DNA of 64,000 bases from Collinsella sp. (lineage in GTDB: Bacteria; Actinomycetota; Coriobacteriia; Coriobacteriales; Coriobacteriaceae): assembly GCA_036304385.1 (NCBI GenBank), contig JAXIYS010000078.1, forward strand, positions 9,473 through 73,472, given 5' to 3'. The notes beneath the pieces are model-generated. The model did not search any database and was not told where the DNA came from. It was given only the letters and a program-made list of their open reading frames with translations. Numbering within the stretch: the first letter of the stretch is position 1; every line of letters begins with the position of its first letter. Both the position numbers and the translations under genes were made by a program. Below are positions 11,918 to 31,268 of this stretch, one piece after another.

Positions 11918-12052
11918 CTAGACAGTGAGACGCTTGCGGCCCTTGGCGCGACGACGGGCGAGCACGGCACGACCACCCTTAGTGGCCATACGGGCACGGA
12001 AGCCATGGGTCTTGGCACGCTTACGCTTATTAGGCTGATACGTACGCTTCAT
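11918..12052 (-). CDS. rpmH: 50S ribosomal protein L34
   Basis: [44 protein letters not shown], a canonical 44-aa L34. The ORF-track start at 12112 is too long. Confidence 0.95.
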
Positions 12053-12224
12053 CTTAAGTTCCTCCTGCTGCATTTCGAGTGTCCGCGGGGGCGCGGACGC
12101 AGATATAGACACGTGAGCTTGAAGATTGTAGGGAAATCAATGTTCAAATGTCAAGAAATCAAAGGTGAAAGGTTGCAAAGAGTACACGGTTCCCCCATAA
12201 GCAGAACCGGCATTTGAGGCAGCA

Positions 12225-12345
12225 GGCAACTTTTCACGAAATTTCATCGAGTTTTCAACAGGTCATGTTGGAAATGTTGAGAACTTTTCGTCCGTTTTCC
12301 AAAGTTTTCAACAGATTTTGAAAACTTGTCGAAAGATGAGAAACA
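12225..12345. promoter_or_regulatory. Cluster of DnaA-box-like motifs (upstream half of a putative bipartite oriC / dnaA-operon control region)
   Basis: Boxes of the form TTTTC(A/C)A(A/C)A: TTTTCACGA near 12231, AGTTTTCAACAG at 12250 and 12303, TGTTGGAAA and TGTTGAGAA near 12267-12283, and TTTTCCAAA near 12295. A 17-mer TTGAAAACTTGTCGAAA (12318-12334) is repeated at 15508-15524. Confidence 0.5.
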
Positions 12346-12397
12346 TTGCGTGGTGAGCTACTATTTTTTCAAAACCTTTTGAAAGATTGCGAGCGGC

Positions 12398-13750
12398 ATG
12401 TCTGACGACTTCTACACCATGGTCGATTCCGGTGATCCGGCACCCGACAACGAGCACATCACCGGCGTGCGCGAAGAACGCAACGAGAGCGAGCAGGTCA
12501 CCGCACAAGCACCAAAGGCTATGTATGCAGCGCGCATCGCGGTCTACGACGACATGCTGTCGACACCACGTGTCATCGTCATCGAACCGCAAGACGTCCG
12601 TACCTACTTGGAAGAGACAACTAACACCGTCTATCAGTGCATGAAAGAACAGGGAGGACGCATCTCGCTGATGGTTATCCGCGAGATTGTCGAAAACTTT
12701 ATCCACGCGCATTTCGCAGAGCCCATCATCTCAATTCTCGACGGTGGCGATACCATCCGCTTTGCCGATCAGGGTCCGGGCATCGACGACAAAGAGCGTG
12801 CCTTCGACTTTGGCGTAACCAGCGCAAACAGCAAGATGAAACGGTATATCCGCGGCACCGGCGCCGGGTTTCCCATGGTACAGGAGTACTTGGAAAACGC
12901 CGGCGGCGCCGTCTCCATCGAGGACAACATGGGCAACGGCACCGTCGTGACGGTGAGCCTGGACCCCAAGCGCGTGCAGGAAATCGAACGTGCTGGCGGG
13001 CGCGGGGCAGCCGTGCGGCCCGAAACAGAGCAGCAGGCATATCCCATGCCGGGCGCCTTCACGCAGCAACCCGCAGCGATGCAACAGGTGCAACAGCAAA
13101 TGGCCCCCATGCAGCAGCCTGGCATGGCCCCCATGCAAGAGCTCCAGGCACCCTCGGGCGCGATTCCCCAAAACATACCCGATGCAAAGCCAGCGATGGG
13201 CCAGGACGCGGGAACCTTGCAGCAGATGGCGGGCGCATCGGCCGCACAGCAGATGTCCTATCAACCGAACCCGCAAGGGTATCCGGCTCAATACGCACCG
13301 CAAACGGGATATGCGCAGGCATACCCCCAGCAATACCCGCTGGGATACCAGCAGCCGTACCAACAGATGCCCCAGGCGCAGTACAACCCATGGGCCCAGC
13401 AGATGCCCCCGCAGCCTTACCAACAGTGGCCTCAAAGTTTTCAACAGCAGCCGCTGCCCATGCAGAGTTCTCAACAACCAGCAGCTCAAATGATGTATCC
13501 TAATGCGGCGAATCAATATGCACAGCCGCAGCAAAACGTATTTGTGAGCGAGCGCGGCGAAGCGGCACTGGGCTATCTGGCTCAAAACCAGGAGTGTGGC
13601 GCAACCGACCTGGCACGAGCGTTTGGAAACTCAGCGCCCACGTGGTCGCGAACGCTCAACGACTTGGCACAGGCCGGCTTGGTATTCAAACATGGCCAGA
13701 AATATCATCTGACCGAAATAGGCAGCGCTCGCGTGCGAGCCCAAAGTTAA
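12398..13750 (+). CDS. GHKL-type ATPase domain protein with a long Q/P-rich low-complexity linker and a C-terminal winged-helix DNA-binding domain
   Basis: Motif I-like REIVENFIHAH, G1-like ADQGPGID, G2-like RGTGAGF...GNGTVVTVSL, about 190 aa rich in Q/P/M/Y, and C-terminal GATDLARAFGNSAPTWSRTLNDLAQAGLVFKHGQKYHLTEIG. The stop is 15 nt before the dnaA start. Confidence 0.7.
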   Translation: MSDDFYTMVDSGDPAPDNEHITGVREERNESEQVTAQAPKAMYAARIAVYDDMLSTPRVIVIEPQDVRTYLEETTNTVYQCMKEQGGRISLMVIREIVENFIHAHFAEPIISILDGGDTIRFADQGPGIDDKERAFDFGVTSANSKMKRYIRGTGAGFPMVQEYLENAGGAVSIEDNMGNGTVVTVSLDPKRVQEIERAGGRGAAVRPETEQQAYPMPGAFTQQPAAMQQVQQQMAPMQQPGMAPMQELQAPSGAIPQNIPDAKPAMGQDAGTLQQMAGASAAQQMSYQPNPQGYPAQYAPQTGYAQAYPQQYPLGYQQPYQQMPQAQYNPWAQQMPPQPYQQWPQSFQQQPLPMQSSQQPAAQMMYPNAANQYAQPQQNVFVSERGEAALGYLAQNQECGATDLARAFGNSAPTWSRTLNDLAQAGLVFKHGQKYHLTEIGSARVRAQS

Positions 13751-13765
13751 GGAGCGGGAGAAACA

Positions 13766-15490
13766 GTGGACGAGGAAGCAAGCATCATCCTGGGAGATGC
13801 CATCGCCTTTTGTCAGCGCGACGGCCAAGATGCACGCCTCATCAACATGCTGGGACAATCGCGCGCCGTAAGTTTAACCGAGGACACTCTGACGATTGAG
13901 GCCCCTTCGCGCTTTGCCATCGCTCAGCTCAAAAAGCATCAGCCGACCATCGAGGCGTACCTAGAAGAGATCGCCTTTGCACCGATCGCGCTCAATATCG
14001 TGGCACCGCAAGGCGCCTCGGCAAATACGGCCCCGGTCACCCACCCGGTAGCGACCGCCACCGCAGCGGCAACGCCGGCGCCCGAGCCTCGACGCGACGA
14101 TGTTTCCCGTGAAACCTTGGCACCGCAGCCGACCGCTTCGGTCGCACCGGCGGTAGAGCCAACCCCCTCGCCCATCCCGACCGCCACGCATATGCCCGTC
14201 GCACATGAGGCGACACCCGGCGAGGAATCGGGCATTGCAATCAAAAACACGTTGTCCGCCGACGATTTCCGCCGCATGATGACCCAAATGAATGGCAGGC
14301 CACCGGCGAAAAGCGCGAGTTCGTCCGCAGCGCCGGCAGCACCTTCGGCGGCGGCCCCGGCGGCAGTCGAGAAAAACGCGGACGGGGCACCCCTCGCAGC
14401 GAATTCGAAATTCACGTTTGAAAACTTCGTCTTCGGACCGGAGAACAGTCTTGCCTACCGATCGGCGCTCAAATTCGCCATGCTTGCAGACACGCCCGGT
14501 ACCTGCACGTCGCTGTTCATCTACGGCAAATCGGGCCTGGGCAAGACGCACCTGCTGCTCGCCATCAAAAATGAGCTGGCAGAGAAATCGCCCGAGATCA
14601 AGGTGAAGTACGCCAACTCGCAGGCATATCTGGACGACTTGATGACGGAATTCGACCGCCAAAAGAAGAGCAACGCCCCCATTATGCAGGCGTACCACGG
14701 CGTCGACGTGCTTATCATCGATGACATCCAGAACATCATTGGCAAGCGCGCGAGCGTGGATTACTTCTTCCAGTTGATGGACGAATTCATCCGTAACAAC
14801 AAGAAAGTCGTGATCGCCGCCGACCGCGCTCCCAAAGACCTTAATATGGACGAACGCCTGACCAGCCGCTTTAATGCCGGTCTGCTGTGTCTGGTGGCGG
14901 AGCCTAGCTACGAGATGAAGTACAAGATTTTGCAGCGTTATTACGAGAACACGATCGCCGCCGCGCCAGAGGCGGGCAACGACTCGCTGCTGGCGGCCTA
15001 CGGGGGCGACGGCGGACATCTGACCGACGCGCACTTTAAACACATGGCCGAGGTCTCGGGCACCAACATTCGCGAGCTCGAGAGCTTTTGCGAGCGTTGC
15101 GCCGGCGAAGCGGGCGATCGCGAGCGCGAGGGCAGGGAACTCACCTTTGACGACATCGACGCCATCGCCAACCAGTACTTCGACACATCGGCCAAGAAGA
15201 TCAATGTGCAGACGGTCCAGTCCGTCATCGAGGAGCAATACGGTGTGACGCACGAGGAGCTCATCGGGCCTCGCCGCAACGCCAATATCGCCAAGGCGCG
15301 CCATATCGCTATCTACCTGGCGATCGAGATGTGCGAGATGACGACAACGGCCGTGGGTGCCGAGTTTGGCAACCGCAACCACTCGACCGTCAGCACGAGC
15401 TACAAAAAGGTTCAGAAGATGATTCAGGAAGACCGGACTGTTACCGAAGACCTCAAATCGCTGCGCGATAAAATTACACTGCGCTCGTAG
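13766..15490 (+). CDS. dnaA: Chromosomal replication initiator protein DnaA
   Basis: Walker A (GKSGLGKTHLL), Walker B (VLIIDDIQ), domain IV (ARHIAIYL...FGNRNHSTV) and a P/A-rich domain II linker. GTG start after AAGGAG. Confidence 0.95.
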   Translation: MDEEASIILGDAIAFCQRDGQDARLINMLGQSRAVSLTEDTLTIEAPSRFAIAQLKKHQPTIEAYLEEIAFAPIALNIVAPQGASANTAPVTHPVATATAAATPAPEPRRDDVSRETLAPQPTASVAPAVEPTPSPIPTATHMPVAHEATPGEESGIAIKNTLSADDFRRMMTQMNGRPPAKSASSSAAPAAPSAAAPAAVEKNADGAPLAANSKFTFENFVFGPENSLAYRSALKFAMLADTPGTCTSLFIYGKSGLGKTHLLLAIKNELAEKSPEIKVKYANSQAYLDDLMTEFDRQKKSNAPIMQAYHGVDVLIIDDIQNIIGKRASVDYFFQLMDEFIRNNKKVVIAADRAPKDLNMDERLTSRFNAGLLCLVAEPSYEMKYKILQRYYENTIAAAPEAGNDSLLAAYGGDGGHLTDAHFKHMAEVSGTNIRELESFCERCAGEAGDREREGRELTFDDIDAIANQYFDTSAKKINVQTVQSVIEEQYGVTHEELIGPRRNANIAKARHIAIYLAIEMCEMTTTAVGAEFGNRNHSTVSTSYKKVQKMIQEDRTVTEDLKSLRDKITLRS

Positions 15491-15499
15491 GTAAATGAA

Positions 15500-15600
15500 C
15501 ACACCTGTTGAAAACTTGTCGAAACGAAGGCTATAAGGTGTCGAAAACTCGAGCCGCGGTGATGAAAAGTTTTGCGCAGGTTTTGAACGTGGAAAACATG
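15500..15600. promoter_or_regulatory. DnaA-box-like cluster between dnaA and dnaN
   Basis: CTGTTGAAAACT (15505-15516, reverse complement of the 12-mer), TGTCGAAAC, TGTCGAAAAC (15539-15548) and GTGGAAAAC near 15590. Confidence 0.5.
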
Positions 15601-15654
15601 CCCGGTTGCACACAGGTTCCTGTCGATTCTCTTTTTAGGGCTGACCTGCACTTT

Positions 15655-15728
15655 TAGGAGTAATCAACAGTTTCGTCAGTACTATTACTATTATTAAGAT
15701 ATTTATATCTATAGAAAGGTATTAAAAG
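15655..15728. promoter_or_regulatory. AT-rich putative DNA unwinding element (DUE) just upstream of dnaN
   Basis: GTACTATTACTATTATTAAGATATTTATATCTATAGAAAGGTATTAAAAG is the most AT-rich stretch of the window and sits next to the box cluster. Confidence 0.55.
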
Positions 15729-23687: not shown

Positions 23688-23764
23688 GGACCTGTAGCTC
23701 AGTTGGTTAGAGCGTCCGGCTGATAACCGGGAGGTCACAAGTTCGAATCTTGTCAGGTCCACCA
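23688..23764 (+). tRNA. tRNA-Ile (anticodon GAT)
   Basis: Folds by hand into a cloverleaf: acceptor GGACCTG/CAGGTCC, anticodon loop CTGATAA, T-loop TTCGAAT and an encoded CCA. Confidence 0.93.
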
Positions 23765-23775
23765 CTTTCTTTCGC

Positions 23776-23820
23776 AATAAACACCCCAGCGAGAGCCGAG
23801 TCGCCGCTGGGGTGTTTATT
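23776..23820 (+). other. 16-bp perfect hairpin in the tRNA-Ile/tRNA-Ala spacer
   Basis: AATAAACACCCCAGCG (23776-23791) pairs with CGCTGGGGTGTTTATT (23805-23820) around a 13-nt loop. It may be a processing or attenuating hairpin. Confidence 0.7.
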
Positions 23821-23831
23821 ACTTTCTCCGT

Positions 23832-23907
23832 GGGGGTTTAGCTCAGCTGGGAGAGCGCGGGCTTTGCAAGCCTGAGGTCAGGGGTTCGATCCCCCTAACC
23901 TCCACCA
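23832..23907 (+). tRNA. tRNA-Ala (anticodon TGC)
   Basis: Acceptor GGGGGTT/AACCTCC with the G3:U70 identity pair, anticodon loop TTTGCAA and an encoded CCA. Confidence 0.93.
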
Positions 23908-23911
23908 TGAT

Positions 23912-23988
23912 GGACCTGTAGCTCAGTTGGTTAGAGCGTCCGGCTGATAACCGGGAGGTCACAAGTTCGAATCTTGTCAGGTCCACCA
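23912..23988 (+). tRNA. tRNA-Ile (anticodon GAT), second identical copy
   Basis: 77 of 77 nt identical to 23688-23764. It starts 4 nt after tRNA-Ala. Confidence 0.93.
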
Positions 23989-31038: not shown

Positions 31039-31129
31039 TGGCGGAGGAGGAGGGATTCGAACCCTCGTGACCTTATACAGGCCAAACGGTTTTCGAGACC
31101 GCCGCATTCAACCACTCTGCCACCCCTCC
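31039..31129 (-). tRNA. tRNA-Ser (anticodon CGA)
   Basis: The reverse complement folds with acceptor GGAGGGG/CTCCTCC, anticodon loop CTCGAAA, a long variable arm, T-loop TTCGAAT and CCA. Confidence 0.9.
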
Positions 31130-31136
31130 GCGTGGG

Positions 31137-31168
31137 GTAAAAACAAAGCAGGCTCGAAGGCCTGCTTT
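31137..31168 (-). terminator. Hairpin terminator between the two tRNA-Ser genes
   Basis: AAAGCAGGC/GCCTGCTTT stem. On the minus strand it is followed by GTTTTTA. Confidence 0.6.
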
Positions 31169-31177
31169 GGAATTAAC

Positions 31178-31268
31178 TGGCGGAGAGTCAGGGATTTGAA
31201 CCCTGGAGACGCTTTTGACGCCTACACGATTTCCAATCGTGCTCCTTCGGCCACTCGGACAACTCTCC
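31178..31268 (-). tRNA. tRNA-Ser (anticodon GGA)
   Basis: The reverse complement folds with acceptor GGAGAGT/GACTCTCC, anticodon loop TTGGAAA, a long variable arm and CCA. Confidence 0.9.

Follow-up and report, generated by a model that had tools for sequence, protein, structure and literature searches.

This work concerns a gene that stands immediately in front of dnaA in a stretch of Collinsella sp. DNA (assembly GCA_036304385.1, contig JAXIYS010000078.1, positions 9,473 to 73,472 of the forward strand). The stretch, 64,000 nucleotides (nt) long, is called the window here, and all coordinates are positions in it. The open reading frame (ORF) at 12398-13750 on the plus strand was given the working name gene X, and its product joins a histidine kinase-type ATP-binding domain to a winged helix through a disordered linker. 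Comparison of sequences identifies X as a real, strongly conserved protein and as a member of a family that is conserved across the class Coriobacteriia, in which X and dnaA make up what looks like a two-gene unit. Judged from sequence, X is most likely an ATP-responsive DNA-binding regulator of dnaA expression, of the origin oriC, or of both, a reading to which we give about even weight.

The evidence that carries this reading is gene order. X was found directly upstream of dnaA, on the same strand, in all seven lineages examined, with gaps that range from 5 to 177 nt and in three different gene orders. The Collinsella loci came from a scan of a genome collection, in which the best 80 of 553 relatives were all Collinsella species (a genus that GTDB splits into many), and in each of the 80 loci X ends exactly 15 nt before dnaA. 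Their order, shared with the window, has rpmH on the minus strand and X, dnaA, dnaN and recF on the plus strand; rpmH is present in 76, the rest being truncated contigs. Three further lineages (L085, L086 and L087), with an X that is about 40% identical, show the same order with gaps of 9, 14 and 5 nt. Another order is seen in the complete genome of Raoultibacter timonensis (AP025577.1; L088/L089), where dnaN, recF, gyrB and gyrA run away from X on the opposite strand and 177 nt separate X from dnaA; a second assembly that contains the locus bore out the identity of this dnaA, the product being 41% identical to the window DnaA across the AAA+ core (E 4e-42). The last two lineages, L091 and L092, are metagenome-assembled genomes (GCA_963588595.1 and GCA_964631345.1) with a GC content of 34%, against 45-59% in the named Coriobacteriia examined. 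In L092, dnaN, recF, gyrB and gyrA again diverge from X and dnaA (gap 22 nt), which are followed by rpmH, yidC and jag, and this order is exactly what an inversion of the X-dnaA pair as a single block would give. In L091, infC, rpmI, rplT, ABC and FtsX genes lead into X and dnaA (gap 55 nt), with rnpA, yidC, jag, parA and parB behind them. Since the pair was kept while rpmH and dnaN were swapped as its neighbours, X and dnaA moved as one unit.

The origin region as a whole has been rearranged in several lineages of the Coriobacteriia, with the X-dnaA block inverted relative to dnaN-recF-gyrBA and to rpmH-rnpA-yidC-jag. In L091, infC-rpmI-rplT and the ABC-transporter genes take the place of dnaN upstream.

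The junction between the two genes is tight. In the window, X runs from an ATG at 12398 to a TAA stop codon at 13748-13750 (450 amino acids, aa), and only 15 nt separate it from dnaA (TAAGGAGCGGGAGAAACA followed by the GTG at 13766). The Shine-Dalgarno sequence of dnaA, AAGGAG (13749-13754, plus strand), overlaps the stop codon of X. A pattern scan found no terminator in the 15-nt gap, and its single hit was a weak 5-bp stem within gene X (13664-13677), against 3.0 expected from shuffled sequences. In five of the seven lineages the gap is 5-22 nt, and because the ribosome-binding site of dnaA sits there within or across the end of X, no room is left for an intergenic promoter. The original prediction, made from the letters of the window and a list of its ORFs, had described X as apparently the first gene of the dnaA operon. 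Its account of the ORF, the stop position, the 450 aa, the distance to the dnaA GTG, the overlapping Shine-Dalgarno sequence and the lack of a hairpin or T-tract in between agrees with what was seen here, and the operon claim is consistent with the short gaps and with the DnaA-box cluster that lies upstream of the pair in each lineage. X is also not a gene of this strain alone, being carried by 80 of 80 Collinsella loci and by the further lineages, nor was it found at unrelated loci in relatives, where it keeps its place relative to dnaA in seven of seven lineages.

The N-terminal part of X (aa 40-204, 12515-13009, plus strand) is an ATP-binding domain in which a strand-strand-helix extension (aa 45-84) leads into a Bergerat fold of the histidine kinase type. 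The N-box includes E96, E99, N100 and H103, and the G1 and G2 motifs are at D124-I129 and R152-P159. Pfam HATPase_c matches aa 93-190 with 43.3 bits against a cut-off of 26.4, and the homologues P0302 and P0231 reach 36.4 and 36.6 bits. An AlphaFold2 model of X was built on 93 family members; it is confident for aa 40-204 and aa 379-450, and the predicted local distance difference test score (pLDDT) falls below 50 at aa 1-39 and 205-378. Within the ATP-binding domain, the lid excepted, the pLDDT is about 88-96. When this model was compared with the Protein Data Bank (PDB) by Foldseek, the catalytic and ATP-binding (CA) domains of HK853, EnvZ and other histidine kinases ranked first (E down to 2e-6), followed by the mitochondrial BCKDK/PDK kinases, with a probability of 1.00 for both groups. 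A family profile run against PDB sequences matched KinB (3.9e-6), YycG and CheA, and also the N-terminus of MutL (2e-4), in the latter case over the N-box/G1 stretch only. Searches of NCBIfam and PDB sequences with X itself returned catalytic ends of histidine kinases only, as weak matches. Across the 93 sequences E99, N100, H103, D124-Q-G-P-G-I129, K132, G153, G155, G157, P159, N177, G181 and T185 are invariant, and E96, four residues ahead of the N-box Asn (R-E96-I-V-E99-N100), is kept in at least 90% of members. The extension before the N-box helix is highly conserved as well (R46, A48, Y50, D51, D52, P57, R58 and P64), and the domain is 98.8% identical across Collinsella.

No Pfam match of the HisKA type was found at E<=10, and AlphaFold2 places a strand-strand-helix, rather than a helical hairpin, before the N-box, leaving no candidate for a dimerisation and histidine phosphotransfer (DHp) domain; the sole invariant His of the family is H103, within the N-box. 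No response regulator or receiver domain is encoded near X in the seven lineages, where the neighbours are rpmH, dnaA, dnaN, recF, gyrB and ABC-transporter genes. A classical two-component histidine kinase was thereby ruled out. A MutL-like clamp ATPase was also ruled out, as there is no transducer domain of the ribosomal-S5 fold: the fold ends at about aa 204, disorder follows, and there are no DNA_mis_repair or DNA_gyraseB Pfam matches. An anti-sigma Ser-kinase like SpoIIAB is not supported, since HATPase_c_2 (SpoIIAB/RsbW) gives no match at E<=10 and no sigma or STAS genes occur at any locus examined. Because no DHp or HisKA region precedes the fold and no transducer follows it, the N-terminal domain is, according to sequence and model, a stand-alone histidine kinase-type Bergerat ATP-binding domain with a predicted intact pocket.

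The C-terminus (aa 379-450, 13532-13747, plus strand) is, in the models, a winged helix-turn-helix (wHTH) of the MarR/Csa3 type and a putative DNA-binding module. Its helices span aa 385-397, 402-409 and 413-425, the last being the putative recognition helix, followed by the wing (429-438) and a final helix (440-449). When the 72 aa of this C-terminus were modelled alone with AlphaFold2, the order helix-helix-helix-strand-strand-helix was obtained with a pLDDT of 93 and a predicted template modelling (TM) score of 0.82. Foldseek paired the domain with MepR/MarR, Csa3, IclR-type regulators and the archaeal centromere protein AspA at TM scores of 0.76-0.84. The Pfam matches of X to winged-helix families all lie under their cut-offs (HVO_A0261_N at 29.4 bits against 35; MarR_2, IclR, ArsR), while the homologue P0231 passes HTH_IclR with 23.9 against 22. 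The wing, GxK(R/Y)xLT(D/E)xG, and the scaffold are conserved throughout the family (K435, L438, T439 and G442), and within Collinsella the domain is 90.7% identical.

Between the two folded domains lies a linker of 174 aa (aa 205-378, 13010-13531, plus strand) that is rich in Q, P, A, M and Y (Q 28%, P 17%, A 16%, M 8%, Y 7.5%) and has 17 aromatic and 7 charged residues. Within Collinsella it is 73% identical as a whole. Its first part (about aa 215-310) evolves fast, with blocks 44-72% identical, and its second part (aa 311-378), which is 35% Q and 19% P with 10 aromatic and zero charged residues, shows block identities of 80-99%. Among the 86 representatives in which both domains were recovered, the shortest linker has 8 aa and the longest 363 (median 134). 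Linkers of at least 60 aa have a median Q/P/A/G/Y content of 64%, and the short forms have linkers of 8-60 aa that are K/E/S/N-rich or almost absent; throughout the Eggerthellaceae-type branch the linkers are short and not Q-rich. Because of this range in length, and because short forms almost do without it, the low-complexity region cannot carry the core function of the family. The long Q/P/Y-rich linker of Collinsella appears instead to be a lineage-specific elaboration of a tether.

A tail of 39 aa precedes the ATP-binding domain (12398-12514, plus strand). It is predicted to be disordered (pLDDT 32-37), is 91% identical within Collinsella and carries the peptide MSDDFYTMVDSGDPAPDNEH. This peptide is conserved in the long-linker forms and opens the homologues P0123-P0126, which are 50-58% identical overall; a comparison of consensus sequences did not find it conserved in the short forms. 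The first 20 residues (12398-12457), M(S/A)DDFY(T/P)(M/F)VDSGDPAPDNxH, resemble a short linear interaction motif.

The three-part architecture that the original prediction read from the translation, a GHKL domain, a low-complexity linker and a winged helix, was borne out by Pfam, AlphaFold2 and Foldseek. The Bergerat motifs that it quoted turned out to be the invariant columns of the family, with HATPase_c above its cut-off, and its statement that no DHp or His-phosphotransfer region is present holds in both the HisKA search and the model. Its winged helix is a wHTH fold in AlphaFold2 and Foldseek alike. Of the HATPase_c/MutL-like fold that it proposed to look for, the HATPase_c part stands and the MutL part does not, the domain being of the histidine kinase CA type with a resemblance to MutL in the N-box/G1 stretch only. 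The Q/P/M/Y-rich region is there too, at 174 aa (by pLDDT <50) rather than the approximately 190 aa given. A condensate- or prion-like linker as a core feature of the family fell away, given lengths of 8-363 aa and the near absence of a linker in Eggerthellaceae-type forms.

The family is large. Among clusters at 90% identity 1983 homologues of X were found, the top 120 of which stem from gut metagenomes and all reach 77% identity or more, and an exhaustive search of 50%-identity representatives gave 855 clusters at E<=1e-3 and 259 at E<=1e-30. In the best 149 of these representatives a simple phmmer search recovered both the N-domain and the C-terminal wHTH in 86; many of the remainder are fragments or have a wHTH too divergent to be recovered. 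A profile made from the divergent half of the family collected 3097 proteins, the best of which are short forms of 240-300 aa. Every named member is from the Coriobacteriia (Collinsella, Coriobacteriaceae, Coriobacteriales, Raoultibacter, Adlercreutzia, Eggerthellaceae), and since Raoultibacter belongs to the Eggerthellales and Collinsella to the Coriobacteriales the family spans the class. X is intact in all 80 Collinsella species loci, at 421-457 aa, and its N-domain is 98-99% identical to those of the 80 genomes, which makes the window Collinsella aerofaciens or a near relation of it. The databases name the family 'ATP-binding protein' only, and three automatic JGI annotations are either incorrect or generic ('uncharacterized membrane protein', 'Signal transduction histidine kinase' and 'DNA-binding transcriptional ArsR family regulator'). 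Searches of plasmids and phages by tblastn returned no family member, and since their matches were only generic histidine kinases, about 30% identical, X is not a mobile-element gene. PADLOC models match X only through the wHTH ends of Csa3/CasR (E 1e-5 to 2.5e-7), and with the match confined to those C-termini a role as a defence-system component was rejected. One metagenomic cluster, P0061 (464 aa, 10 members), combines the N-terminus of X with AAA/DnaA-type Pfam matches; a frameshift, or an assembly artefact that fused X to dnaA, is the probable cause, in keeping with the adjacency of the two genes.

In the window the element AGTTTTCAACAG has 13 matches at up to 2 mismatches, against 2.7 expected, and these cluster upstream of X, inside X (13436 and 13466) and between dnaA and dnaN. 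The upstream cluster lies in the divergent region between rpmH and X (12053-12397), with boxes at 12250-12261 (plus), 12274-12285 (minus), 12303-12314 (plus) and 12315-12326 (minus). The same region holds two palindromes, AAGTTTTCAA-N6-TTGAAAACTT at 12302-12327 and TTTCAAAA-CC-TTTTGAAA at about 12367-12384, and a promoter-like site for rpmH on the minus strand (12154-12125, 11 of 12 matches in a consensus scan). A comparison of 61 distinct Collinsella sequences puts identity over the 345 nt of the region at 93%, while the genes on either side have a codon identity of about 69%; because nearly all of the region is conserved, footprinting cannot separate a private operator of X from DnaA boxes or promoters. 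The canonical DnaA box TTWTNCACA was not found at the sites of these clusters. In the distant loci, 3-7 canonical boxes (TTATCCACA and TTTTCCACA) lie at homologous positions in the 450-880 nt upstream of X, TTTTCAACA occurs at a conserved position near the X start, and more boxes and an AT-rich tract follow dnaA. DnaA-box clusters were thus seen upstream of X in every lineage.

The Collinsella DnaA (13766-15490, plus strand, 574 aa) is itself unusual. It matches Pfam Bac_DnaA and Bac_DnaA_C, has no Pfam match to DnaA_N at E<=0.01, begins with an Ala/Pro-rich half of 212 aa (aa 1-212) and is 31-36% identical to the DnaA of other Coriobacteriia. Its DNA-reading signature, located with an E. coli domain IV sequence as a guide, is GNRNHSTVSTS, compared with GGRDHTTVM(H/Y)S in the relatives. 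Since the relatives have canonical boxes at the same places and the DnaA signature is altered in step, the AGTTTTCAACAG repeats are most likely variant DnaA boxes of Collinsella that have co-evolved with a changed DnaA, rather than private operators of X. X lies between the upstream cluster of these boxes and dnaA and would therefore share in DnaA autoregulation. On the other side, the region between dnaA and dnaN (15491-15728) has boxes at 15505-15516, 15538-15549 and 15659-15670 and an AT-rich tract at about 15680-15728, and from its sequence is likely to be the unwinding side of oriC. In each of the four lineages that have the standard order, an AT-rich, TTATTACTATTACTATTATTAAGATATTTATATCTATAG-like tract lies shortly before dnaN (window 15680-15728, L085 7440-7487, L086 7630-7677, L087 7620-7678), and this conserved tract is the probable DNA-unwinding element.

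The coding sequence of X also contains stretches in which synonymous sites are conserved. The longer one falls in the linker (13400-13505, plus strand, codons 335-370), where residues that are identical also share their codon at a rate of 0.92-1.0; over the gene as a whole this codon identity averages 0.69 (standard deviation 0.12). Two box copies lie within it: AGTTTTCAACAG itself, in frame at 13436-13447 (codons S347-F-Q-Q350) and present as an exact copy in all 80 Collinsella loci, and AGTTCTCAACAA, with 2 mismatches, at 13466-13477. A second peak covers codons 432-447. Judged from sequence, these peaks could possibly reflect internal DnaA boxes, an internal dnaA promoter, some other DNA or RNA element, or a constraint on the initiation of dnaA translation. 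In-ORF synonymous conservation was rejected as proof of a DNA element, and the peak in X is treated as a lead rather than as evidence, because dnaA and dnaN peak in a similar way (for example 0.98-0.99 at dnaA codons 98-119, 14057-14120, in the low-complexity N-terminal half).

A working scheme can be drawn from these observations. X and dnaA would be transcribed together from a promoter under the control of DnaA boxes, and levels of X would then track those of DnaA. The winged helix would hold X to DNA at the origin region or close to it, and nucleotide bound by the N-terminal domain, whether or not hydrolysis or dimerisation follows, would switch the DNA binding of X or the effect of X on DnaA, with a logic like that of sensor-plus-wHTH regulators such as Csa3. 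A more specific form of the scheme, which we regard as possible rather than probable, makes X a class-specific, ATP-gated co-regulator of initiation that is made in step with DnaA, is held at the origin by its wHTH and licenses or restrains DnaA according to its nucleotide state. As the N-terminal, regulator-docking domain of DnaA is divergent in the Coriobacteriia, X might then supply the function of a domain I partner. The ideas of the original prediction that X is a partner of DnaA and forms condensates are speculation, and a physical or functional link of X to DnaA or oriC is one that we infer from the position of the gene.

Several points weigh against X as an ATP-responsive regulator of dnaA or oriC. 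Gene position is the sole tie of X to replication. A promoter-like sequence, TTGGTA-18-TATCAT (13679-13708, plus strand, 9 of 12 in a consensus scan), lies in the 3' end of X, in the wHTH coding sequence about 60 nt upstream of dnaA and amid the raised synonymous conservation of Collinsella, where it overlaps the second peak; it is a possible, weak candidate for a separate promoter of dnaA alone. TATAAT occurs inside the 177-nt gap of Raoultibacter and likewise in the gap of L091. Residues 413-419 of the recognition helix differ between clades, which makes a single conserved DNA target unlikely. The genome-collection scan returned Collinsella alone among its best 80 of 553 relatives. Finally, an isolated catalytic domain of the histidine kinase type could be a protein kinase instead of a sensor.

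That last thought leads to the first of the other explanations, in which X is a DNA-tethered protein kinase that trans-phosphorylates DnaA, another replisome or origin protein, or itself, with the wHTH merely positioning it near the origin. The nearest structural relatives of the domain are all kinases, both the histidine kinase CA domains and the BCKDK/PDK Ser-kinases, and every ATP-contacting motif is intact, from the N-box Glu and Asn with H103 as the Asn+3 residue to the G2 ATP lid. Such a kinase would nevertheless work without a DHp or His acceptor and without a response regulator nearby, the only invariant His being H103 inside the N-box; HATPase_c_2 is not matched at E<=10 and no substrate can be named, which leaves the kinase unlikely in our estimate. 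Another explanation keeps X at the origin and lets its wHTH itself bind the AGTTTTCAACAG / TTGAAAA repeats, as a competitor or co-factor of DnaA. The two palindromes are of the type bound by dimeric MarR-type winged helices, the second lies between a possible -10 element and the X start codon, and boxes occur ahead of X, within it and beyond dnaA. The canonical boxes TTATCCACA and TTTTCCACA at homologous positions in relatives, and the coincidence of the C-to-A change in the Collinsella box with substitutions in the base-reading motif of DnaA, speak for DnaA as the reader of these repeats; they weaken the targeting of the repeats by the wHTH that had been proposed from the window alone and make it improbable.

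X may also be an ordinary nucleotide-sensing transcription factor for unrelated genes that stands beside dnaA by inherited order. Its wHTH is closest to transcription factors of the MarR/IclR/Csa3 type, and a recognition helix that varies by clade is what ordinary regulators show. Neutral gene adjacency, though, is rarely so long-lived: the pair has outlasted two or more independent rearrangements in which both of its outer neighbours changed, and it has been kept where X is only about 40% and DnaA only about 33% identical. Among the other explanations, this is the one against which gene order speaks most strongly, and we see only a slim chance for it. Slimmer again is the chance that X acts, in Collinsella and the other long-linker lineages, chiefly as a condensate-forming or prion-like scaffold whose Q/P/Y-rich region gathers factors at the origin. 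The linker has the composition for it, being disordered, Q- and aromatic-rich and poor in charge, and aa 311-378 are 80-99% conserved in Collinsella; the feature is not kept across the family, however, whose linkers vary between 8 and 363 aa in length, and some of the conservation sits at the nucleotide level, in synonymous positions around the boxes inside the ORF, so that it need not reflect what the protein does. The regulator of dnaA or oriC remains the reading that we prefer.

To the left of the pair, on the minus strand, rpmH (11918-12052 for a 44-aa product) is followed by rnpA, yidD, yidC and jag/khpB, and in close relatives gidB, parA and parB come after jag/khpB on that side. On the right, dnaA is followed by dnaN, recF, a DciA-like gene and gyrB. 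No RNA element was matched at the locus, the Rfam matches in the window being tRNAs only; these form clusters unrelated to X at 23688-23985 (three, plus strand) and 31042-31268 (two with long arms, minus strand). Antisense and overlapping ORFs in this region (such as 12731-13585, minus strand) were set aside as by-products of CAG/CTG-rich coding sequence.

Detailed knowledge of how replication initiation is controlled comes from only a few model bacteria, and every lineage has proved to have regulators of DnaA of its own. The Coriobacteriia, among them Collinsella, Eggerthella and Adlercreutzia, are abundant in the gut and of medical relevance, and their cell cycle has hardly been studied. By keeping its place before dnaA through chromosomal rearrangements, X becomes an unusually well-supported candidate for an initiation regulator, and the finding is a well-supported lead rather than a demonstrated mechanism. 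Our literature search turned up no work on the family, and none on a Coriobacteriia gene that lies between rpmH and dnaA. While each domain is known, the orphan histidine kinase catalytic domain without a phospho-acceptor fused to a winged helix, a combination not described before, is new as far as the databases and literature searched can tell, as are the family itself and its invariant partnership with dnaA. If X is indeed an ATP-gated co-regulator, it would be an initiation regulator of a new kind, with a fold that had so far had no link to the control of DnaA. Should its function prove unrelated to replication, it would still define a new class-wide protein family and correct the annotation 'ATP-binding protein'.

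Among known systems, the CA domains of histidine kinases (HK853 of Thermotoga, KinB of B. subtilis/Geobacillus, EnvZ) are the best sequence and structure matches of X, with the same Bergerat fold, the same N, G1 and G2 motifs and a basic or His residue at Asn+3. Unlike the histidine kinases, X lacks a DHp/HisKA region, a sensor or transmembrane part and a partner response regulator, and has instead a conserved strand-strand-helix extension at its N-terminus and a wHTH at its C-terminus. With the GHL ATPases that clamp DNA (MutL, GyrB, MORC), X shares the Glu four residues before the Mg-binding Asn (E96), and its N-box ExxEN and G1 DxGxGI align with the N-terminus of MutL (E 2e-4), but it has no S5-fold transducer and Foldseek puts kinases on top. 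Csa3/CasR has a homologous wHTH (Foldseek TM 0.82, root-mean-square deviation 1.5-1.7 A) and, like X, an N-terminal nucleotide-binding domain in front of it; there the sensor is a CARF domain for cyclic oligoadenylate in a CRISPR context, whereas X has a GHKL fold, ATP or ADP as its putative ligand, and dnaA as its context. The MarR/MepR and IclR factors have a DNA-binding module of the same fold, seen as the sub-threshold Pfam matches, yet X is without the dimerisation helices of MarR or the effector domain of IclR, and its wHTH is a module of 72 aa that ends a tether. None of YabA, SirA, Soj, Hda, DiaA/HobA or SeqA appears among the Pfam and NCBIfam matches of X at E<=10, and none of YabA, SirA, Soj, Hda or DiaA/HobA is known to be encoded as the first gene of a dnaA operon. 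DnaA and archaeal Orc1/Cdc6 are built on an AAA+ ATPase where X has a GHKL one, but X likewise joins a nucleoside triphosphate-binding domain to a (winged) helix-turn-helix and is encoded at the origin, plausibly under the control of DnaA boxes, a likeness that is one of analogy only.

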